Origin: Planctomycetota bacterium
Lineage (GTDB): Bacteria; Planctomycetota; UBA1135; UBA2386
Direction: 5' to 3'
DNA length: 64,000 nt
Assembly (NCBI GenBank): GCA_965223545.1
Contig: OZ245006.1
Span: 8,001,703-8,065,702, forward strand
Shown here: positions 9,477-53,759 of the stretch, one piece after another
How the letters are laid out: the number at the start of each line of letters is the position of its first letter
How positions within the stretch are numbered: the first letter of the stretch is position 1
Notes under the pieces: generated by a model
Told to the model about the DNA's origin: nothing
What the model saw: only the letters and a program-made list of their open reading frames with translations
Databases searched by the model: none
Program-made: the position numbers and the translations under genes

Positions 9477-9863
9477 ATGAAGCGAGTGACAGGGATCGGC
9501 GGCATCTTCTTCAAGGCCAGGGACCCAGCCGCGCTCCAGGCTTGGTACAAGCGCCACCTCGGCATCGATGTCCAAGAGTGGGGAGGAACGGCCTTCTCCT
9601 GGGCAGGCCCGGACGGCAAGCCGGCGGGTGGGACGACGGTTTGGTCCATCGGTCCGCAAGAGGACGGGCGGTTCGCACCGGGCACCGCCCCCTTCATGAT
9701 CAACTATCGCGTGGAGGATCTGCACGCTCTGCGCGCGGCGCTCGTGGCCGAAGGCTGCAACGTCCTCGACCAAGTCGAGGACGGCGAGTTCGGCATCTTT
9801 GGATGGGTGGTCGACCCCGAGGGTAACAAGGTCGAGCTGTGGCAGCCGCCTACGGGGCAGTGA
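9477..9863 (+). CDS. VOC/glyoxalase family protein
   Basis: MKRVTGIGGIFFKARDP...MINYRVEDL...FGWVVDPEGNKVELWQP; AGGA RBS. Confidence 0.92.
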   Translation: MKRVTGIGGIFFKARDPAALQAWYKRHLGIDVQEWGGTAFSWAGPDGKPAGGTTVWSIGPQEDGRFAPGTAPFMINYRVEDLHALRAALVAEGCNVLDQVEDGEFGIFGWVVDPEGNKVELWQPPTGQ

Positions 9864-10106
9864 GCGTCCGGGGCCGACAATCTTCGTGTGGCGACAACAC
9901 TTCCGAAAGGCCGGTTGTCGTCAGGGCTTCGACACCGCAACTCCCGGCCGCTCGAAAGCAACACTGGCGTCTACGCTCAGCGCCGCCGCCCGGGACCGCT
10001 GGAATCGCGGGCTCCGCTCCTGTCGCGGCGCGCTCGGCCTTTGATATCTCCTAAGTCATGTCAAGGGGTTTTCGCTGGGGCTCGACATCGCGTGTGCACG
10101 GCTTGT

Positions 10107-11609
10107 TCAGGACTCTTCCACAAGACCAGGGAAGTGTTCTTGCATGAGATCACCGATCGGGTGAGGTTGACGTGGGGATTCCACGGCCAGGCCTGTGGCG
10201 TCCATTGGGCGGCCACTCAAGTCCCTCGTCGTCGGAGTCCCCACTCGTCCCTGTCGCCGTTGGTCGCGCTCATGCCGCTGTGGCGCGACGATGCTGCGCG
10301 TGAACTTGGCTGCGATGAGCGCGCGCGCGGCAACCTTCGTGAGCTCGTTGCCGTCGGCGTCTCGCAGGACGTAGCGGACTTGCGTCGACGCCGGCTTGTC
10401 ATCGGCGCGCTGGCTGTCGCGACGCTTCAGGAGGGCGTAGACGCGGCGCGCCATCTTGCCAGCCAATGCGATGAGGATGAGGTTGTGGTGATCACCTGCG
10501 GCGTAGCGGCGAGCGTAGTACGCCGCGAAATCCGGATCCCACTGGCGAGCGACGTCAGCTGCTAGGTAGAGGTACTTCTTGAGTACTCGTTGGCCGGTTT
10601 TGGTGATTGGCATCGAGGGGTCGCTCATGCCCGTCTGCTTCCGGCGTGGACACAGTCCGCAGTAGCTCACGAACTTCTTGCCGTTCGAGAACCGCGCGAT
10701 GTCGCCTACCAAGGCTTCGATGGCCGCAGCGATCGTGGGACCGACGCCGCGCAGTTGCTCGAGTGTTCGGTCAGGATCGACGCCCAGGTAGAGCTTCTTG
10801 ATCTTTGCGTCGAGCTTGCGAACGTCCGTGTTCTTGCGCTCGATCTCATCCAGCTCGTACACCACATCCTCTTGGATGGCCTCGTAGTCGAACGGCATCT
10901 GCCCCGCAGCTCGCAGCTCAGCGTAGTACTCGGCGGCCTGTCGGCAGGACTCGAGCACGCGGTCGACCAAGCACGGGTCATGCGTTCCCTTGGATCGCTT
11001 CGTCAAGAAGCGCTCCAAGCGACTCTTCCCAAGGCCGACCGCTTTCACCGGATCGACGTAGCGCCGCAGAAACCCCATCTTAGCGGCACTGAACTTCTCT
11101 GCCCCCAAGGCCTTCATGAGGCTGGGATTCGCCAGTACCAGTATCGCGTGCACACGACGCTTGTGGTCGCTGAGCTCGCGCGCCAACCGCTCACGCCGCT
11201 TCACGAGTCGACGGATCGTCGTCTCGTCGGCAGTTGGAACACGCAGCTGGTGGACGCCCTTTGGATCCATCTGCGGCAGACGCGCAGCGGCCTCGGCGTC
11301 TACTACGTCGGTTTTGGTGTGCTTGCTATAGAACTTCCGCAGGTCGCTCAGCTTCTGTGGTTTGCTCACGTAGATCTGGAACCCTGCGGCGTTCACGTGC
11401 GCCGCGATGGGCAGCCACGCCAACCCCGTTGGTTCCATCACGAAGCTCACCGGACCCTCGGCACCTTCCTGTGCACGGCGCAGCAGAAGGTCAATACCCT
11501 CACGGCTGTTCTCGACTGAAAACGGTCTGCCCCGAGACTTCGCACCATCCAGAACGACGGCTCGGTGCTTGCTCCTCAAGCCGAGATCCAATCCAACGAA
11601 TCGATTCAT
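10107..11609 (-). CDS. IS110-family DEDD recombinase (500 aa)
   Basis: VGLDLG, MEPTG, KTDVVDA (DEDD); LRGVGPTIAAAIEALVGDIARF, YCGLCP, IALAGKMAR. Confidence 0.95.
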   Translation of the reverse strand: MNRFVGLDLGLRSKHRAVVLDGAKSRGRPFSVENSREGIDLLLRRAQEGAEGPVSFVMEPTGLAWLPIAAHVNAAGFQIYVSKPQKLSDLRKFYSKHTKTDVVDAEAAARLPQMDPKGVHQLRVPTADETTIRRLVKRRERLARELSDHKRRVHAILVLANPSLMKALGAEKFSAAKMGFLRRYVDPVKAVGLGKSRLERFLTKRSKGTHDPCLVDRVLESCRQAAEYYAELRAAGQMPFDYEAIQEDVVYELDEIERKNTDVRKLDAKIKKLYLGVDPDRTLEQLRGVGPTIAAAIEALVGDIARFSNGKKFVSYCGLCPRRKQTGMSDPSMPITKTGQRVLKKYLYLAADVARQWDPDFAAYYARRYAAGDHHNLILIALAGKMARRVYALLKRRDSQRADDKPASTQVRYVLRDADGNELTKVAARALIAAKFTRSIVAPQRHERDQRRQGRVGTPTTRDLSGRPMDATGLAVESPRQPHPIGDLMQEHFPGLVEES

Positions 11610-11983
11610 GTCCCCTCCATGTTCAACGAGTGAGTGTCGACGAGAGGACTCTCCCTACCCGCGCAGTCCGCCTGAGGAGGCGAGTCGCCAAAACGGTTCG
11701 TGTTTCGGGGCCGTGATTTCTCACGCCGCCAATCTCCTAAATCGGGTCCCCCACGCGGGAGGAGAGTCGCAGAACCAAATGAGGGGCCGCTCGAAGCGCC
11801 ACCATTGCGGCAGATCGCGAAACCTCTCCGTCGCACGCCGGGGGACCCTAAGCTCTCTTGCGGCCGATGACCAGACTCCCGACACGACTCCTGCGGCTGC
11901 ACCATCGCGCGAGTCTTCCACACCGCTACGGCGCGACGGGTGTGGAGAACTCTAGCTTCGCAGATCATGGAACCACACATACC
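11610..11983 (-). ncRNA. Candidate IS110 bridge RNA region, copy 1
   Basis: Same sequence as 48245-48618; stem-loops carrying target- and donor-matching segments. Confidence 0.7.
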
Positions 11984-12494
11984 GTTGCGGCCCCGGCCGC
12001 GCTGAGCCTCCGGCGCCTCGAATCTTCGAGCTGCGACAACATTTTCTAGGCGACGCCGCTGCCATGGCAAAGTCGCCGCCGCGCCGGAGGCTCGGAGAGA
12101 CAGTGCCTCCTGGCTCAGCGCGGCGGCGGATTGGTCGGACCTTCCAAACCGCTCCGGCGAGAGCGGCATCCGAGTTTGGTTGCGGCCGTGGCCGCGCTGA
12201 GCCTCAGGGTCCGCAAATCTTCGCGCGGCGACAACCTTTCGGAAGGCTCGATGCCGCTGGAACTTCGACAACGCAGCTCCCGGAGGCTCGAAGACAACAC
12301 TGGCCTCTGGGCTCAGCGCGGCCGCCGGCGACCGCGGGACCCGCGACCGACGCTCGGGTCGCGGAACGCTCCGTGTTTGGTTGCGGCCTCGACCGCGCTG
12401 AGGGGCGGCGTCCGCGAATGAAGAGAGTGGCCGAGAGCGCGAGCGGCGAATGAGTATCCGATTGTCACGCCGCGGTCGATCGTTCGACGCGCGG

Positions 12495-45556: not shown

Positions 45557-45985
45557 ATGCCACCCGCCGACCGACCCGCCATCCCCGAAGCCGAGCTCGC
45601 GCTGCTCAAAGCACTGTGGGAGCGGGGTCCGAGCACGGTGCGCGAGCTCCGGGCGGCGACGCCGGCGCGGGCCTACACGACGGTGCAGACCCTGCTCTCC
45701 AGGCTCGAGGACAAGGGCTACGTCAGCGTCGACCGGGGTGGCGTGGCGCACGTCTTCGCCGCCTCGGTCAGCCGCGAGGATCTGCTCGACCAGCGGCTCG
45801 ACCAGCTGGCATCCGAGCTGTGCGACGGCGCCAGGGTACCGCTGGTGCTGCGCTTGGTCGCCGGCGGTCGCTTCAACGCCGACGACATCGCGCGCTTCCG
45901 CCGGATGCTGGACGAGGCTCCCGGAGCGAGCGCGGACCAGAGCGAAGCCGATCGCGATGCCGAAGATCCCGGGGGGCCATTGTGA
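45557..45985 (+). CDS. BlaI/MecI/CopY-family repressor
   Basis: AELALLKALWERGPSTVREL, AYTTVQTLLSRLEDKGYV. Confidence 0.95.
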   Translation: MPPADRPAIPEAELALLKALWERGPSTVRELRAATPARAYTTVQTLLSRLEDKGYVSVDRGGVAHVFAASVSREDLLDQRLDQLASELCDGARVPLVLRLVAGGRFNADDIARFRRMLDEAPGASADQSEADRDAEDPGGPL

Positions 45986-48135
45986 CCTGGCTGTTGGAGC
46001 ACAGCACCGGCGCGCTGGCGCTCGGCGTCGCGGTGTGGGCCGCGGTGCGCTGGCTGCGGCCGGCGCCGGCCGTGGCCCACCTGCTCTGGCTCGCGGTCAT
46101 CGTCAAGCTGATGCTGCCGCCCCTGCTCCGCTGGCCGGTGCTCCCCGCGGTGGGGATCGCGACGCCCGCGGCGGGGTCGATGCCGTTGCCGGCGGGGGCG
46201 CCGCTCGACCCCGCGGTCTTGCTGCTGGCCTTGCAGCAGCCCGCGGTTCCGCCGGCCGCGCCGGGAGCCGAGGGCTTCGCCTGGCTGCTTTGGCTCTGGG
46301 CGATCGGCTCGATCGGCACCGCGGTCTGGCTGACGCGCGGCGCGCTCCGCACGCGCCGCTGGCTCCGCCGCGCCGCGCCACCGCCTGCCGCCTTTCTCGG
46401 CCGCGTCCGCGCGCTCGGCGCGCGGCTCGGAGTTTCGCCGCCGCGCGTCGCCGTGGTCGCCGACGCCGTGACCCCTTTCGTGTTCGGCCCCGGCCGCCCG
46501 GTGCTCGTGTGGCCGGCGCGCATGCTGGCGCCGAGCCGTGCGCACGACGCCGTGCTGGCGCACGAGCTGGCGCACCTGCGCCGCCGCGACCACTGGGTGG
46601 CGCGGCTGGAGGTGCTGGCCCTGATCGCCTTCTGGTGGCATCCGCTGTTGTGGCTGGCGCGGTCGCGCATGCGCGCCGCCGCCGAGCTCGCCTGTGACGC
46701 GTGGGCGCTGTGGGCGGTCCCACAGGCACGGCGCGACTACGCCGGCGCGTTGATCGACACCCTGGAACTGCAATCCCAAGCGGCGCCCGCCGCGGTCGCG
46801 CTCGGCGCGCGCCAGGCGGACCGTCGCGCTTTCGAAGAGAGACTCGAGATGATTCTGCACGCGAAGCACTCCGTTCGCCGCCGCTGGTCCGTGTTGCCGG
46901 TGGCAGCCCTGGCACTGACCCTCGCCGGCGGTCCTACGTTCGCCCAGGAAGGGGGCGCGCAGCGCGCCAAGACCAGTCGGTCCGAGGAGAGCTTGGAGAG
47001 CAAGATCGAGGCCGCGGTGCGTCGGGCGTTGGCCGAGCACGGCATCGAGGCGGAGGAGTCGGAGGCCGAGACCCCCGCTCCGGCGACACAGCGGGGCGCG
47101 GAGGGCGACGACACCCTGCGCCGGGTGCAGGCGGAGCTGGAGGCGGCCCTCGACGAGGCGCGTGCCGAGATCCGCGGCGACGAGGACCTGCGCGCGCTCG
47201 GGATCGCGGGGGACGTCGAGCGGCTCGTCGGTACCGTGCTGAGCGGTGAAGGGGAGATCGGAGATTCGCTCGGCAGCGTGCTGCAGAAGGCGTTGGCGGG
47301 CGGCTTGCGCCAGGCGCAGCAGGAGATCGCAGACGACGAAGATCTGCGGGCCATGGGCTTGACCGACGACGTGCAGGGCCTGGCCAGTGCGTTGCTCGGC
47401 GGCGAAGGCGACGCGATGGGCAGCCTGCAGGGCGTGGTCGAGAAGGCCATGGCGCACGGCTTGCGCGAGGCGCAGCGGGAGATCGGAGACGACGAAGATC
47501 TGCGGGCCATGGGCTTGACCGACGACGTGCAGGGCCTGGCCCGTGCGCTGCTCGGCGGCGAGGGCGACGCGATGGGCAGCCTGCAGGGCGTGCTCGAGAA
47601 GGCGATGGCGCAGGGCCTCCGCCACGCCCAGCAGGAGATCGCAGACGATGAGGATCTGCGGGCCATGGGCTTGACCGACGACGTGCAGGGCCTGGCCCGT
47701 GCGCTGCTCGGCGGCGAGGGCGACGCGATGGGCAGCCTGCAGGGCCTGGTCGAGAAGGCGATGGCGCAGGGCCTCCGTCACGCCCAGCAGGAGATCGCAG
47801 ACGACGAAGATCTGCGCGCGCTGGGGCTGACCGGCGATGTGCAGGGCCTGGTCGGCGCGCTGATTGGTGGTAATGAAGCGCAGGGCAACCTGGCGCACTC
47901 CGTCGAGCGCGCATTGCGCGCCGCGCGGGGTGAGGGGCAAGGTGCACCGGCGCTGGAGCACGCGCACCAGCAGATCCGGCAGGCGCAGCGCTCGATCGAA
48001 CAGGCGATGCGTGCCCTGCGCGAGCACGGCGCCGAGACCGAGGGGCTGCAGGAGGTCTTGGAGCAGGTGCGCCGTGCCGCCGCGGAGGCGGCTGCGTCGA
48101 CGAGCGCGTCGGGCAAGAAGCGCCGCATCCTCTGA
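45982..48135 (+). CDS. BlaR1-like M56 metallopeptidase with C-terminal 52-aa helical repeats
   Basis: GTGA overlap with blaI; LAHELAHLRRRD, FWWHPLLW, ELACD, FEERLEMI. Confidence 0.92.
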   Translation: MTWLLEHSTGALALGVAVWAAVRWLRPAPAVAHLLWLAVIVKLMLPPLLRWPVLPAVGIATPAAGSMPLPAGAPLDPAVLLLALQQPAVPPAAPGAEGFAWLLWLWAIGSIGTAVWLTRGALRTRRWLRRAAPPPAAFLGRVRALGARLGVSPPRVAVVADAVTPFVFGPGRPVLVWPARMLAPSRAHDAVLAHELAHLRRRDHWVARLEVLALIAFWWHPLLWLARSRMRAAAELACDAWALWAVPQARRDYAGALIDTLELQSQAAPAAVALGARQADRRAFEERLEMILHAKHSVRRRWSVLPVAALALTLAGGPTFAQEGGAQRAKTSRSEESLESKIEAAVRRALAEHGIEAEESEAETPAPATQRGAEGDDTLRRVQAELEAALDEARAEIRGDEDLRALGIAGDVERLVGTVLSGEGEIGDSLGSVLQKALAGGLRQAQQEIADDEDLRAMGLTDDVQGLASALLGGEGDAMGSLQGVVEKAMAHGLREAQREIGDDEDLRAMGLTDDVQGLARALLGGEGDAMGSLQGVLEKAMAQGLRHAQQEIADDEDLRAMGLTDDVQGLARALLGGEGDAMGSLQGLVEKAMAQGLRHAQQEIADDEDLRALGLTGDVQGLVGALIGGNEAQGNLAHSVERALRAARGEGQGAPALEHAHQQIRQAQRSIEQAMRALREHGAETEGLQEVLEQVRRAAAEAAASTSASGKKRRIL
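47149..47880 (+). repeat. Intragenic 156-bp tandem repeat (~4.6 units)
   Basis: D-L-R codons recur at 47185, 47341, 47497, 47653, 47809. Confidence 0.95.
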
Positions 48136-48244
48136 GCGTCCGGGGCCGCAAGTCTTCGCGCGGCGACAACCTTTCGGAAGGCTCGATGCCGCTGGAGCTT
48201 CGACAACGCAGCTCCCGGAGGCTCAGCGCGGCCACGGCCGCAAC

Positions 48245-48618
48245 GGTATGTGTGGTTCCATGATCTGCGAAGCTAGAGTTCTCCACACCCGTCGCGCCGT
48301 AGCGGTGTGGAAGACTCGCGCGATGGTGCAGCCGCAGGAGTCGTGTCGGGAGTCTGGTCATCGGCCGCAAGAGAGCTTAGGGTCCCCCGGCGTGCGACGG
48401 AGAGGTTTCGCGATCTGCCGCAATGGTGGCGCTTCGAGCGGCCCCTCATTTGGTTCTGCGACTCTCCTCCCGCGTGGGGGACCCGATTTAGGAGATTGGC
48501 GGCGTGAGAAATCACGGCCCCGAAACACGAACCGTTTTGGCGACTCGCCTCCTCAGGCGGACTGCGCGGGTAGGGAGAGTCCTCTCGTCGACACTCACTC
48601 GTTGAACATGGAGGGGAC
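48245..48618 (+). ncRNA. Candidate IS110 bridge RNA region, copy 2
   Basis: 5' hairpin 48276-48317; long stem 48380-48484 with loop strands GCCGCAA and TTTGGTT; donor match TTAGGAGAT 48488-48496. Confidence 0.72.
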
Positions 48619-50121
48619 ATGAATCGATTCGTTGGATTGGATCTCGGCTTGAGGAGCAAGCACCGAGCCGTCGTTCTGGATGGTGCGAAGTCTCGGGGCA
48701 GACCGTTTTCAGTCGAGAACAGCCGTGAGGGTATTGACCTTCTGCTGCGCCGTGCACAGGAAGGTGCCGAGGGTCCGGTGAGCTTCGTGATGGAACCAAC
48801 GGGGTTGGCGTGGCTGCCCATCGCGGCGCACGTGAACGCCGCAGGGTTCCAGATCTACGTGAGCAAACCACAGAAGCTGAGCGACCTGCGGAAGTTCTAT
48901 AGCAAGCACACCAAAACCGACGTAGTAGACGCCGAGGCCGCTGCGCGTCTGCCGCAGATGGATCCAAAGGGCGTCCACCAGCTGCGTGTTCCAACTGCCG
49001 ACGAGACGACGATCCGTCGACTCGTGAAGCGGCGTGAGCGGTTGGCGCGCGAGCTCAGCGACCACAAGCGTCGTGTGCACGCGATACTGGTACTGGCGAA
49101 TCCCAGCCTCATGAAGGCCTTGGGGGCAGAGAAGTTCAGTGCCGCTAAGATGGGGTTTCTGCGGCGCTACGTCGATCCGGTGAAAGCGGTCGGCCTTGGG
49201 AAGAGTCGCTTGGAGCGCTTCTTGACGAAGCGATCCAAGGGAACGCATGACCCGTGCTTGGTCGACCGCGTGCTCGAGTCCTGCCGACAGGCCGCCGAGT
49301 ACTACGCTGAGCTGCGAGCTGCGGGGCAGATGCCGTTCGACTACGAGGCCATCCAAGAGGATGTGGTGTACGAGCTGGATGAGATCGAGCGCAAGAACAC
49401 GGACGTTCGCAAGCTCGACGCAAAGATCAAGAAGCTCTACCTGGGCGTCGATCCTGACCGAACACTCGAGCAACTGCGCGGCGTCGGTCCCACGATCGCT
49501 GCGGCCATCGAAGCCTTGGTAGGCGACATCGCGCGGTTCTCGAACGGCAAGAAGTTCGTGAGCTACTGCGGACTGTGTCCACGCCGGAAGCAGACGGGCA
49601 TGAGCGACCCCTCGATGCCAATCACCAAAACCGGCCAACGAGTACTCAAGAAGTACCTCTACCTAGCAGCTGACGTCGCTCGCCAGTGGGATCCGGATTT
49701 CGCGGCGTACTACGCTCGCCGCTACGCCGCAGGTGATCACCACAACCTCATCCTCATCGCATTGGCTGGCAAGATGGCGCGCCGCGTCTACGCCCTCCTG
49801 AAGCGTCGCGACAGCCAGCGCGCCGATGACAAGCCGGCGTCGACGCAAGTCCGCTACGTCCTGCGAGACGCCGACGGCAACGAGCTCACGAAGGTTGCCG
49901 CGCGCGCGCTCATCGCAGCCAAGTTCACGCGCAGCATCGTCGCGCCACAGCGGCATGAGCGCGACCAACGGCGACAGGGACGAGTGGGGACTCCGACGAC
50001 GAGGGACTTGAGTGGCCGCCCAATGGACGCCACAGGCCTGGCCGTGGAATCCCCACGTCAACCTCACCCGATCGGTGATCTCATGCAAGAACACTTCCCT
50101 GGTCTTGTGGAAGAGTCCTGA
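48619..50121 (+). CDS. IS110-family DEDD recombinase (500 aa)
   Basis: Translation identical to 10107-11609; GGAGGGG RBS. Confidence 0.95.
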   Translation: MNRFVGLDLGLRSKHRAVVLDGAKSRGRPFSVENSREGIDLLLRRAQEGAEGPVSFVMEPTGLAWLPIAAHVNAAGFQIYVSKPQKLSDLRKFYSKHTKTDVVDAEAAARLPQMDPKGVHQLRVPTADETTIRRLVKRRERLARELSDHKRRVHAILVLANPSLMKALGAEKFSAAKMGFLRRYVDPVKAVGLGKSRLERFLTKRSKGTHDPCLVDRVLESCRQAAEYYAELRAAGQMPFDYEAIQEDVVYELDEIERKNTDVRKLDAKIKKLYLGVDPDRTLEQLRGVGPTIAAAIEALVGDIARFSNGKKFVSYCGLCPRRKQTGMSDPSMPITKTGQRVLKKYLYLAADVARQWDPDFAAYYARRYAAGDHHNLILIALAGKMARRVYALLKRRDSQRADDKPASTQVRYVLRDADGNELTKVAARALIAAKFTRSIVAPQRHERDQRRQGRVGTPTTRDLSGRPMDATGLAVESPRQPHPIGDLMQEHFPGLVEES

Positions 50122-50163
50122 ACAAGCCGTGCACACGCGATGTCGAGCCCCAGCGAAAACCCC

Positions 50164-50169
50164 TTGACA
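50164..50169 (+). promoter_or_regulatory. Outward-facing -35 hexamer of the IS circle-junction promoter
   Basis: TTGACA 15 bp from the right end; circularisation places TATGTG (48247-48252) 17 bp downstream. Confidence 0.75.
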
Positions 50170-50378
50170 TGACTTAGGAGATATCAAACTCGGATGCCGC
50201 TCTTGCCGGAAACGCTTTGGAGAGTCCGACCCATCCGCCGCCGCGCTGAGACGAGTCCTCGGTGGCAGCGCCGCCGCAGCCGCGGCGCGTCGGGCGCCGG
50301 CTATGACCGGGCTGGCGGCGTGCTACGTTATCGATGCCCCCGCCCGTTGCGCGCCGTGACGGCCGCGCAGTCGCCCCC

Positions 50379-53300
50379 ATGAGCCAACGCCCGAAGTCCA
50401 AGCTCGATCTGTCCCAGAAGAAGCGCGCACTCCTGCAGGCACTTCTCGAGCGGGAGGGTGCCGGTAGCGCGGAGCGGATCCCGCCTCGTGACAGCGGGCC
50501 GGTGGCGCCGCTGTCGTTTGCCCAGGAGCGCGTCTGGTTCCTCGACCAGATGGCGCACGGCACGCCCCTGTTCAACGTGCCCGGTGCGGTGCCGCTGCGC
50601 GGCCCGCTCGACGTGGACACGCTGCGGCGTGCGCTGCAGGAGGTCGCACACCGGCACGAGACGTTGCGGACCACTCTCGACGCTGGCGATGGCGCGCCGG
50701 TCCAGCGCGTGCACGCGCCCGCGGAGATCGCCCTCGACGTGGTGTCGATCGACGCGGCCGACGCGGAGGCGGTGCGCGATTGGCTGCGCGCCGAGATGAG
50801 ACGGCCGTTCGACGTGGTCGGTGGCCCCCTCTGGCGGGCGGTGTTGCTGCGCACCGGCGAGCAGGAGCACGTGTTGTCGGTGTGCATGCACCACTCGATC
50901 TCCGAAGCGGCTGCGTTGGGCGTCCTGTTCGACGAAGTGGCCGCGCTGTACGCCGCCTTCAAGGCAGGGCAGCCGTCGCCGCTGCCCGCGCTGCCGATCC
51001 AGTACGGAGACTACGCCGCGTGGCAGCGGCAGTGGGTACGCGATCGGGTCGTGGGGGCCCAGCTCGACTACTGGAAGGAGCAGCTCGGCGGCACGTTGCC
51101 GCAATTGCAGCTGCCGCTCGACCGGCCGCGGCCGGCGAGCCCCACGTATACCGGTGCGTTTGCGCACCGCCGGCTGTCGTCGAGCCTCACCGACCCACTT
51201 GCCGACTTCGCCAAGGACGCCGGGGCGACTCCATTCATGCTGTACTTGGCGGCGTTCGCCGCCCTGCTGTCGCGCTACGGTGAGCAGGACGACGTGCTGA
51301 TCGGCTCGCCGATCGCGCGGCGCGATCGCGCCGAGCTCGAGGGTTTGATCGGGTTCTTCGTCAACACCATCGTGCTGCGCACCGACCTCGGCGGTGGCCC
51401 GAGCTTCCGCGAGCTGCTGGCGCGGGTGCGCGGCGTGGCGCTGGATGCCTTCTCCCACGCCGACCTGCCGTTCGAGCTGGTCGTCGAGGCGTTGCAGCCC
51501 GGTCGCGCGCAGGGCGCGACGTCGCTGTTTCAAGTGATGTTCGATCTGCCCGCCGAGCCGCGCCCGGCGCTGGCGCTGGCCGACCTTGAGCCGGCGCGCG
51601 TGTTCGAGCCGTGGGATGTTCACAGTGGCACGACCAAGGTCGACCTTGCGCTGTTCCTGTGGAATGTCGAGGACGGCATGGTTGCCGCGGTCGAGTACAA
51701 CACCGACTTGTTCGATCGCGCGACGATCGAGCGCTTCCTGACGCACTACGAGAATCTGCTGGCGGCCGCGCTGGCAGCGCCCGACACCCCGCTCGCGGAG
51801 TTGGAGATCCTGGCGCCCGCCGAGCGCAGGCAGCTGCTGGTGGAGTGGAATCGGACGGCGGTCGAATTCGACCGCGGCGTCAGCGTGCAGCAGCTGGTCG
51901 AGGCGCAGGTGGCGCGCACACCGGATGCGCTGGCGCTGTCCGGCCCGGCCCTGGACGGCGGCGCGTCCACGCTCACGTACTCCGAGTGGAACCGGCGGGC
52001 AAACCAGCTCGCGCATCGATTGATCGAACACGGGGTGGGTCCCGACGTCTTGGTGGCGGTGTGCATGGAGCGCACTCCCGCGCTGGTGGTCGCCCTGCTG
52101 GCGGTGCTCAAGGCGGGGGGTGCGTACGTGCCTCTCGATCCAGGCAATCCGGCCGAGCGGCAGGCGATGATGCTGGAGGACGCCGGCGTCCCGGTACTGC
52201 TGACGCAGAGCAGCGTGCTGCCGGGGCTGCCCGACTGCCGGGCCCGCGTGATCGCGGTGGACCGGGACGCCGCCGAGATCGAGGGCGCTGCAGATCACGA
52301 CCCAGCGTGCCGCACCAACGCCGACCACCTCTCCTACGTGATCTTCACCTCCGGCTCCACCGGCCGGCCGAAGGGAGTGCAGATCCCGCATCGGGGCTTG
52401 GTCAACCTGCTGTCCTGGCACCGGCGGGTGTACGAAGTCACCGCCGCCGACCGTGCCACGCAGTTGGCGGGAACCGCGTTCGATGCGTCGGTCTGGGAGC
52501 TGTGGCCGTACCTGACCGCCGGCGCCAGCATCCACCTCCCGGACGAAGAGACCCGCGCCGGCCCGCGCGATCTGCTGCACTGGCTGGCTGCGGAGAAGAT
52601 CACGCTGACGTTCCTGCCGACGCCGTTGGCGGAGCTGGTGATCGCCGAGCCGCAGCCGCCGGACATGGCGCTGCGGTGCATGCTCACCGGGGGCGACAAG
52701 CTGCACCGGCCGCCGCCGCCGGGCCTGACCTATCAGCTGGTCAACCACTACGGGCCCAGCGAGAGCTCGGTGGTGACGACGTGCGTGCCGATCGACGCCG
52801 CCGAACGTGCGGGCAGTGCACCGCCGATCGGTCGGCCGATCGACAACACGCGCGTCTATCTGCTCGACCGCCACCTGCAACCCGTGCCGATCGGGGTGCC
52901 CGGCGAGCTGATGGTCGCCGGCGACGGGCTCGCCCGCGGCTACCACGGGCGTCCGGACCTGACTGAAGAGCGCTTCTTGCCCGATCCGTTCGCCGCCGAT
53001 CGCGCGGCGCGGATGTACCGCACCGGTGATCTCGCGCGTTACCGGGCCGATGGCCAGATCGAGTTTTTGGGGCGCATCGATCATCAAGTGAAGGTGCGGG
53101 GCTTTCGCATCGAGCTCGGCGAGATCGAGGCGGTGTTGGCGGCACACGACGCGGTGCGCGATGCTCTGGTCGTGGTCCGCGAGGATCGCCCCGGCGAGAA
53201 GCGGTTGGTGGCCTACTTGCGGCCGGCGCCGGAGACGGCGCCTCCGGCGGCCGCGCTGCGTGCCTTCGCCGCCGACCGCCTGCCGGAGTACATGGTGCCG

Positions 53301-53759
53301 GCGGCCTTTGTCTGCCTGGACGCGTTCCCCCTGACGCGCAACGGCAAGGTCGACCGCGACGCGCTGCCGCCGCCGGCCGAGCCGGTCGCCGGCGAGAGCG
53401 CGCCGGTCGCGCCGCCGGGCAACGAGCTCGAGCAGCGGTTGGCCGGCATCTGGGCCGAGCTGCTCGGCACCGCGCGCGTCGGCATCGACGACAACTTCTT
53501 CGAGCTCGGCGGCCACTCGCTGTTGATGGTGCAAGTGCGTAACCGGCTCGAGGCCGAGCTCGGCCGCACGGTGTCCATGGTGCAGCTGTTCAAGCACCCG
53601 ACCGTGCGCGCGCTGGCCGCCGCGCTCAGCGACGCGCCCGTGCAGCCGGTGACCGCGGATGCCGGTGTCGCCGCGGGGCGGCGCGAGGCGCGGCGCGAGG
53701 CCCGCCGCGACGCGCTGCGCGGCCGCCGTGATCGGCGTGCGCGGCGTTCCGACGGCTGA
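50379..53759 (+). CDS. Single-module NRPS (C-A-PCP, no TE)
   Basis: PLSFAQERVWF, HHSISEA, LIGFFVNT, FTSGSTGRPKG, NHYGPSE, YRTGD, NGKVDR, FFELGGHSL. Confidence 0.95.
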   Translation: MSQRPKSKLDLSQKKRALLQALLEREGAGSAERIPPRDSGPVAPLSFAQERVWFLDQMAHGTPLFNVPGAVPLRGPLDVDTLRRALQEVAHRHETLRTTLDAGDGAPVQRVHAPAEIALDVVSIDAADAEAVRDWLRAEMRRPFDVVGGPLWRAVLLRTGEQEHVLSVCMHHSISEAAALGVLFDEVAALYAAFKAGQPSPLPALPIQYGDYAAWQRQWVRDRVVGAQLDYWKEQLGGTLPQLQLPLDRPRPASPTYTGAFAHRRLSSSLTDPLADFAKDAGATPFMLYLAAFAALLSRYGEQDDVLIGSPIARRDRAELEGLIGFFVNTIVLRTDLGGGPSFRELLARVRGVALDAFSHADLPFELVVEALQPGRAQGATSLFQVMFDLPAEPRPALALADLEPARVFEPWDVHSGTTKVDLALFLWNVEDGMVAAVEYNTDLFDRATIERFLTHYENLLAAALAAPDTPLAELEILAPAERRQLLVEWNRTAVEFDRGVSVQQLVEAQVARTPDALALSGPALDGGASTLTYSEWNRRANQLAHRLIEHGVGPDVLVAVCMERTPALVVALLAVLKAGGAYVPLDPGNPAERQAMMLEDAGVPVLLTQSSVLPGLPDCRARVIAVDRDAAEIEGAADHDPACRTNADHLSYVIFTSGSTGRPKGVQIPHRGLVNLLSWHRRVYEVTAADRATQLAGTAFDASVWELWPYLTAGASIHLPDEETRAGPRDLLHWLAAEKITLTFLPTPLAELVIAEPQPPDMALRCMLTGGDKLHRPPPPGLTYQLVNHYGPSESSVVTTCVPIDAAERAGSAPPIGRPIDNTRVYLLDRHLQPVPIGVPGELMVAGDGLARGYHGRPDLTEERFLPDPFAADRAARMYRTGDLARYRADGQIEFLGRIDHQVKVRGFRIELGEIEAVLAAHDAVRDALVVVREDRPGEKRLVAYLRPAPETAPPAAALRAFAADRLPEYMVPAAFVCLDAFPLTRNGKVDRDALPPPAEPVAGESAPVAPPGNELEQRLAGIWAELLGTARVGIDDNFFELGGHSLLMVQVRNRLEAELGRTVSMVQLFKHPTVRALAAALSDAPVQPVTADAGVAAGRREARREARRDALRGRRDRRARRSDG

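Follow-up and report, generated by a model that had tools for sequence, protein, structure and literature searches.

Genetic organization of the element and its recombinase

The window, that is, the whole stretch of 64,000 nt analysed here (contig OZ245006.1 of assembly GCA_965223545.1, positions 8,001,703-8,065,702, forward strand), contains two copies of an IS110-family element (Table 1). The copy on the forward strand is preceded by an ORF for an 839-aa M56 peptidase (BlaR1-like; 45616-48135), inside which lie four to five tandem 156-nt repeats (47120-47870). It is followed, 150 bp past its right end, by a single-module non-ribosomal peptide synthetase gene (condensation, adenylation and carrier domains; 50334-53759), towards which the -35 box of the right end points. 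Arrays of REP-like palindromic units with a spacing of ∼195-200 bp flank both copies (48114-48244, 50185-50250, 11984-12419 and 9842-10043).

The recombinase ORF matches both IS110 Pfam domains (E values of 1.9e-24 and 4e-21) and the NCBIfam model NF033542 (208.7 bits for a cut-off of 140). In profile searches, ISCro4 is the best hit in the PDB (E 2.8e-26) and the IS621 structure is matched at E 1e-23. Residues D8, E59, D101 and D104 are conserved, as in members of the IS110 group. Non-coding sequences of 374 bp upstream and 63 bp downstream surround the gene, and no end-to-end inverted repeat was found among the 25 longest repeat pairs listed (minimum length 25); a long upstream non-coding region and the absence of terminal inverted repeats are features of the IS110 group. 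The element does not fit the IS1111 group, which is marked by sub-terminal inverted repeats and a downstream non-coding region: its long non-coding region and all four guides of the candidate bridge RNA are located upstream. In the column aligned to the ESG motif of ISCro4, which we equated with S241 of IS621 by counting along the alignment, the recombinase has a threonine, Thr326. Among 60 aligned relatives, 16 have Thr in this column and the other 44 have Ser, and a threonine occupies the aligned position in 43 of the 103 stored proteins; a literature search returned nothing on a threonine at the position aligned with the catalytic serine.

Table 1. Coordinates of the element, its candidate RNA, its junctions and related sites. 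Positions are those of the window unless a contig is named.
Feature	Position	Strand	Remark
IS110-family element, 1940 bp (GGTATG...GAGATAT)	48245..50184	+	insertion without duplicated bases
Second element copy	10044..11983	-	100% identical, both junctions the same
IS110 recombinase, 500 aa	48619..50121	+	D8, E59, D101, D104; Thr326 aligned with the catalytic Ser motif
Candidate bridge RNA, two internal guide loops	48259..48560	+	ends approximate
Left target guide GCCGCAA(T)	48417..48424	+	
Right target guide TTTG-GT	48449..48456	+	GT reads the core; includes two handshake positions
Left donor guide TTAGGAGAT	48488..48496	+	
Right donor guide ACC-GT	48531..48535	+	pairs Watson-Crick with the AC core derived from the target and by wobble with the donor AT core
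Left target arm and target core AC	48237..48244	+	core at 48243-48244; within REP-like repeat
Right donor arm GGTAT	48245..48249	+	first five bases of the element
Left donor arm AGGAGAT and donor core AT	50176..50184	+	core at 50183-50184
Right target arm CAAA	50185..50188	+	
-35 hexamer TTGACA	50164..50169	+	15 nt from the right end
Predicted circle-junction -10 hexamer TATGTG	48247..48252	+	weak
Empty target site GCCGCAACCAAA	12175..12186	-	sibling repeat unit
Second empty target site	12376..12387	-	sibling repeat unit
GGTAT remnant site L242	G000:C1:611325-611341	+	
GGTAT remnant site L243	G000:C1:537448-537464	-	

Target and donor cores differ in every copy

The original prediction held that filled and empty sites show no duplicated bases and that the core dinucleotide is either mismatched (AC versus AT) or absent. 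At the window locus, the left junction reads GCCGCA[AC]GGT (48237-48249) and the right junction GAT[AT]CAAA (50180-50188). Genome-wide, the element is present in 11 copies that are mutually 100% identical (11/11) and share the same two junctions, GCCGCAAC being followed by GGTATG at the left and GAGATAT by CAAA at the right. The identity of the 11 copies argues for an active enzyme. In the public contigs of run X3, depth was ∼301 on the element versus ∼29 on neighbouring contigs, in line with a multi-copy state. Most copies lie within the REP-like repeat. The empty form of the target, GCCGCAACCAAA, occurs 95 times in the genome, and the corresponding AT form, GCCGCAATCAAA, once, outside the repeat; subtracting the empty from the filled site leaves exactly GGT...GATAT. 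A census anchored on the repeat arm found CAACCAAA in 83 of 148 matches and AT at the core in none, many of the other matches being spurious. The public contigs of two of four runs also contain the empty form, as a joint from 48244 to 50185 that skips exactly 1940 bases (GG..AT), although such joints could derive from other repeat copies rather than from the window locus. The empty repeat sites, the empty alleles being those of this element only, read AC directly followed by CAAA, with no duplicated core.

With AC at the left and AT at the right of 11/11 copies, and AC in the 95 empty sites, both the lack of duplicated bases and the mismatch are confirmed: the target core AC and the donor core AT differ at position 9. 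These junctions also support the proposal that the system recombines non-identical cores. Two features of IS621-type elements are thus missing, namely an identical core dinucleotide at both ends (AC versus AT, 11/11 copies) and a T at core position 9 in both substrates, since the target has a C at this position here, and either C or G in 20 of the 23 members of the clade described below. Judged from its sequence, the element is an IS110-group bridge recombinase system that departs from the IS621 model in lacking identical cores. The repeat context does not hide duplications, since a second IS110-family element inserted at another position of the same repeat family (L240, G000:C1:614200-616100, and three other loci) has an ordinary AG/AG core; AG was read at both ends in three copies, and one copy of this second element is interrupted.

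Other features of the host repeats and IS110 elements were recorded. A 4-bp deletion across the insertion point (CAAA in place of CAACCAAA) is present in 6 of the 148 anchored matches and may reflect slippage or insertion footprints. The core motif of the repeat is abundant in some family relatives, for instance G018 and G010. A third IS110-family element (L241, G000:C1:5179500-5181400, and 22 other loci; 460 aa, NF033542 at 248 bits) has GGAGCC/GGCTCC inverted ends; GTAC is constant at the left (22 of 23 copies) and the bases at the right vary; the flanks are swapped in one copy, and its junctions may also be unusual.

Two repeat units, overlooked in the original prediction, read GCCGCAAC-GGTAT-CAAA, that is, an empty site plus the first five bases of the element. 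An ordinary identical AT core could accordingly be placed five bases inside the left end (GGT[AT]GTG and GAT[AT]CAAA), the true target then being the rarer variant GCCGCAACGGTATCAAA, which matches the two units exactly; the left target guide, moreover, continues as GCCGCAAT-GGT. We consider this placement very improbable. Plain sites outnumber GGTAT sites 95 to 2, and the two GGTAT sites belong to two repeat subfamilies whose siblings lack GGTAT. The variant is found in none of five family genomes, despite 29 plain sites in G018; in G010, 39 matches to the gapped pattern are listed as plain sites, with no variant. In addition, homologues whose targets are unrelated likewise begin with GGTAT, the right donor guide follows this arm, and the spacer of the junction promoter would drop to 12 nt. 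The simplest reading of the two GGTAT sites is that they likely result from loss of the element by deletion between the TAT triplets found at either end, an event that may have accompanied the repair of gaps left by copy-out. A second donor guide (ACAC-GA) was considered as the source of these remnants and rejected, by inspection, as no covariation was seen there in homologues.

A clade of homologues carries mismatched cores

We fetched 87 homologous loci (8 + 79). Upstream regions of sufficient length, 80 in all with that of the present element, were aligned. Both junctions were available in 49 of these, and 45 rows were kept for core counts once duplicates (L049 and L056), a row misaligned at the left (L091) and an ambiguous row (L037) had been dropped; L091 and L037 would both have counted as mismatched, and the core of L033 was set by hand to AC/AT. 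Neither parse suits the junctions of L037 well, with CA at the left, AA at the right and AG read by the guides. Among these 45 homologous junction pairs, the cores differ in 17 of the 23 members of one clade and in none of the 22 outside it, where the matched cores are CT/CT (11), AT/AT (9), AG/AG (1) and GT/GT (1). Within the clade, left cores are AC in 9 rows, GC in 4, GG in 4, AT in 3, CC in 2 and TG in 1; right cores are AT in 18, AC in 4 and AG in 1. The branch leading to the clade has an SH-aLRT value of 100 in a quick tree, on which the position-9 label changes at least four times; the clade rows are nevertheless kin and not independent events. Metagenome contigs may join flanks of different sites, which affects the pairing of flanks and not the core read at each end. 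In five of the 23 clade rows (L043, L062, L063, L070 and L072), the right position 9 equals the left one, L072 having a right core AC while its close sister L073 has AT; these five rows show that the target base at times takes the place of the donor base. No change was seen in the protein close to the residues by which IS621 reads the core, EPTG being present in matched and mismatched members alike.

The survey also bears on the second half of the earlier claim, that the core might be absent. Insertion would then be blunt and the GT of the guides coincidental or purely structural, in keeping with the absence of duplicated bases in 11/11 copies and with the insertion without duplication described for ISEc21 (PMC11187229). 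We find this extremely improbable. All 22 relatives outside the clade have matched cores in the same register, and the guide bases change together with the core (AT, GT, CT, AG, AC). The left end of IS621 has the same layout, with the core, 2 nt and the -10 box (PMC11208160). The register is set by matched relatives (AT/AT, CT/CT, AG/AG, GT/GT and AC/AC), and covariation with both positions of the core is seen in each of the two guide loops; this half of the claim is not supported.

Both guide loops carry the same core-reading bases

A bridge RNA with a target loop and a donor loop, whose four guides match both arms of each substrate, is predicted in the upstream region. The guide-like segments that had been pointed out, GCCGCAAT at 48417, TTTGGT at 48449 and ACCGT at 48531, are present at these places. 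Two kinds of evidence bear on the predicted RNA. Firstly, across 43 homologous rows (L033 and L098 left out), the match between the right target guide and the right target arm averaged 4.42 of 5 positions versus 1.62 with shuffled partners, a figure somewhat inflated by the pre-filtering of rows for a right target match of at least 3. The match between the left target guide and the left target arm averaged 5.65 of 7 versus 3.76; none of 2000 shuffles reached either value. Secondly, a consensus fold of 29 sequences recovered the inner stems of both loops and not the outer stems, with compensatory changes at 10 of 19 predicted pairs. Folding of the left end as a single sequence added no information (z-score of -1.41).

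The two loops carry an identical core-reading dinucleotide in 23/23 clade rows. In the 15 rows with unlike bases at position 9, both loops form Watson-Crick pairs with the left, target-derived base (15/15); opposite the donor T, 11 rows have a wobble and 4 a mismatch. In the 11 rows with unlike bases at position 8, it is the right, donor base with which both loops form Watson-Crick pairs (11/11), and opposite the target base 8 rows have a wobble and 3 a mismatch. The original prediction had invoked G-U wobble as a means to accommodate either core. This stands for the present element and for 11 of the 15 rows mismatched at position 9; it fails in the remaining four (L021, L053, L064 and L066), in which a guide C lies opposite the donor T and no wobble is possible, and wobble is therefore not the general explanation. 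A more general rule is that, in both loops, the guide base follows the target at position 9 and the donor at position 8. Comparison of close relatives (L059 with L066, L021 with L073) shows that both guides and the target base switch jointly, the donor AT being unchanged.

A promoter predicted at the circle junction

As had been claimed, joining the two ends of the element yields TTGACA-N17-TATGTG with TGG at -15 to -13. A point overlooked there is that, in the predicted circle, the mismatched core T is the T of the TG extended -10. We infer both the sequence of the circle and the activity of its promoter for this element, whose hexamer TATGTG is weak as a -10 box, with no T at -7. Relatives nevertheless lend support to a junction promoter, with a -35 at a fixed distance and, in distant members, a TATAAT-like -10 in the same register. 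TTGAC is conserved at -21 to -17 (T44, T46, G43, A40 and C41 of 48 rows, right ends being placed by guide complementarity only), the bases upstream of it are unconserved across the 48 rows, and a compensating indel in L031 preserves the 15-nt distance of the -35 from the right end. The left-end hexamer (positions 3-8) was found by a parser that fixed the first three letters and left position -7 free. Of the 22 rows outside the clade, 21 have a T at -7 (TATAAT, TATACT, TATATT or TATGTT), versus 4 of the 23 inside. The TG extension is expected in the circle of 18 of the 23 clade rows, and neither feature in three. Within the clade, the association of donor T9 with a weak -10 was not significant (Fisher p = 0.19); the TG in 18 of 23 predicted circles suggests a possible reason for retention of the donor T. 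No circle back-joint was found in the assembled contigs of four of the 24 public runs listed (X3, X4, X5 and X7), contigs being prone to drop rare forms, and no tandem junction was found in the genome.

Top-strand exchange as a probable explanation for the junctions

The reading that we regard as probable is that of an active IS110 element whose top-strand cut falls 3' of the core and whose product is set by the top strand, so that each junction keeps its own core. By extension from IS621 and CazIS110, at each of the two junctions of the element the recombinase would cut the top strand immediately 3' of core position 9. The resulting circle, with AT of the left donor followed by GGT, would form TTGACA-N17-TATGTG, in which the TG extension takes its T from the core, and would drive the bridge RNA. 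On insertion, the top strands would again be exchanged 3' of position 9, leaving the target AC at the left junction and the donor AT at the right one; the bottom strand would be either unexchanged, with fill-in by the host, or exchanged and repaired with the top strand as template. A cut at this place with dictation by the top strand predicts the target core at the left and the donor core at the right, as seen in 11/11 copies. If the position-9 heteroduplex were repaired 50:50, T in 11/11 copies would be expected at p ∼0.0005, provided that the events are independent. Top-strand-only insertion and full exchange with top-strand-directed repair would both fit the data.

Published work on related elements is relevant to these steps. 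In IS621, the top strand is cut after position 9 and the bottom strand between 9* and 10*, mismatches being thought to be left for repair (PMC11208158; PMC13626964), and each right guide pairs with the incoming core after exchange (PMC11208158). During excision, the left junction, core included, is bound by the right donor guide (PMC13626964). IS621 is reported to release a single-stranded circle (10.64898/2026.08.31.748434). For CazIS110-1, the efficiency of top-strand insertion exceeded that of bottom-strand insertion by >1,300-fold, and excision is also top-strand (10.1101/2025.10.25.684509). With both loops set to the target's base, one of them would pair well at position 9 before exchange and the other after it, at little net cost, and the right donor guide would also match the left junction, which must be bound for excision. 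The clade probably originated from an AT/AT ancestor in which both guides changed from A to G, and later from G to C, while the donor T stayed; a guide G would accept T by wobble and C by Watson-Crick pairing. In IS621, CT/GT cores abolished cross-reactions (10.64898/2026.04.29.721476); those reactions would lose a pair in both loops, unlike the one lost and one gained here.

Several observations stand against top-strand exchange with unlike cores: an AC circle suits the right donor guide better than an AT circle does, the target base is found at the right end in 5 of 23 clade rows, T9 in IS621 is read by the protein and almost invariant (PMC11208158), CT/GT cores abolished cross-reactions there (10.64898/2026.04.29.721476), neither a circle junction in the contigs of the four runs nor a tandem junction in the genome was found, and the -10 has no T at -7. 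The first two would be explained if the functional core were AC on both partners, with a circle in which the left donor arm is followed by A, C and GGT, and if the right-end T survived through a mostly circle-free direct transfer of both junctions. Both guides read AC exactly, an AC circle would match the right donor guide perfectly, and a circle-free direct-transfer route has been reported for CazIS110-1 (10.1101/2025.10.25.684509). We hold this to be unlikely, since it requires a crossover between positions 8 and 9, contrary to the cut site mapped in IS621. Insertion from an AC circle would, besides, leave C at the right end, which is seen in 0/11 copies. The conserved spacing of the -35 indicates that circles matter, and an AC circle would forfeit the TG extension of an already weak -10.

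Comparison with known systems and implications

Junction promoters, REP targeting and insertion described as duplication-free are already known for IS110 elements (PMC11187229; PMC12288879; 10.64898/2026.03.19.712850; 10.64898/2026.08.14.744561; PMC13604230). The present element resembles IS621 in its DEDD RuvC and Tnp domains, its upstream two-loop bridge RNA and its REP-like target (PMC11208160, PMC11208158, PMC13626964), and in having its -35 in the right end and, in the left end, a -10 separated from the core by two bases (PMC11208160). IS621 differs in that CT is used in both donor and target with a nearly invariant T9, whereas the cores differ at position 9 here, and in its size (∼326 aa versus 500 aa), the two proteins being distantly related (profile E 1e-23); the donor loop set to the target's base and the threonine at the aligned catalytic serine position further set the present element apart. 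ISCro4/IS622 has the same bridge architecture but CT cores, in a study that filtered target pairs for identical cores (10.1101/2025.05.14.653916). CazIS110-1 is likewise a multi-copy IS110 with top-strand copy-out and insertion, a mechanism that predicts the present junction pattern; the word 'core' is absent from the main text of that paper (10.1101/2025.10.25.684509). The seekRNA element ISEc21 is of IS110 type, with an upstream non-coding RNA, a junction promoter and no duplicated bases (PMC11187229). It differs in that its authors assign one copy of any repeat to the element, and the lack of duplication there consequently does not establish non-identical cores. ISPpu9 and ISPpu10 also form circles and target REP, but with identical AG/AG and CT/CT cores (PMC12288879; 10.64898/2026.03.19.712850). 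In a literature that was mostly the open one, we found no description of natural non-identical IS110 cores, and one may be in print.

The clade suggests that the identical crossover bases of the well-studied gene-editing enzymes are not always required. Tentatively, and with somewhat less than even confidence, we propose that the clade dropped identical cores and the target T9 through RNA programming, with pairing gains and losses in balance; that the donor T is a promoter base and the mismatch a transcription switch; that the rule may transfer to IS621 and ISCro4; and that the threonine may be the nucleophile. If so, the donor T would be present in the circle, in the TG extended -10, and replaced by the target C or G at the integrated left end. 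Bridge editing treats the core dinucleotide as a fixed constraint, targets being filtered for a match (10.1101/2025.05.14.653916), and a natural clade in which an AT donor targets AC, GC, CC, GG or TG cores would provide enzymes and a design rule for lifting it. Unlike cores have been used to insulate two reactions (10.64898/2026.04.29.721476), and the clade is a caution that such insulation may not always hold. The mismatch would also act as a built-in strand marker, which bears on the disagreement between dual-strand and top-strand-only insertion. Cores have been identified as repeated end sequences, with core changes made jointly in both substrates (PMC11208160); as the published boundary pipeline takes cores in this way, elements with mismatched cores are likely under-counted.

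Distribution of homologues and a subgroup of insertion sites

In the host lineage, a search of 40 relatives yielded only distant IS110 matches, which were present in 12 of them and covered part of the protein at 26-36% identity; none of 400 genomes of the phylum had a match at E 1e-60 among the three candidates scored per genome. Viral contigs contained no homologue, and two motif scans returned chance matches only. One viral contig (L136) has 21 nt identical to the left junction with no IS110 gene nearby, probably by chance. A reading-frame test for empty alleles of the homologues gave no spanning match at nine loci.

In 7 of the 10 rows with sequence (L021, L053, L059, L064, L066, L070 and L072), the insertion point lies 5 nt downstream of a TANNNT hexamer and precedes an ATG or GTG by 1 nt, a pattern that resembles targeting of the promoters of leaderless genes. 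The right end of the element places AGGAGA just upstream of the start codon in this subgroup.
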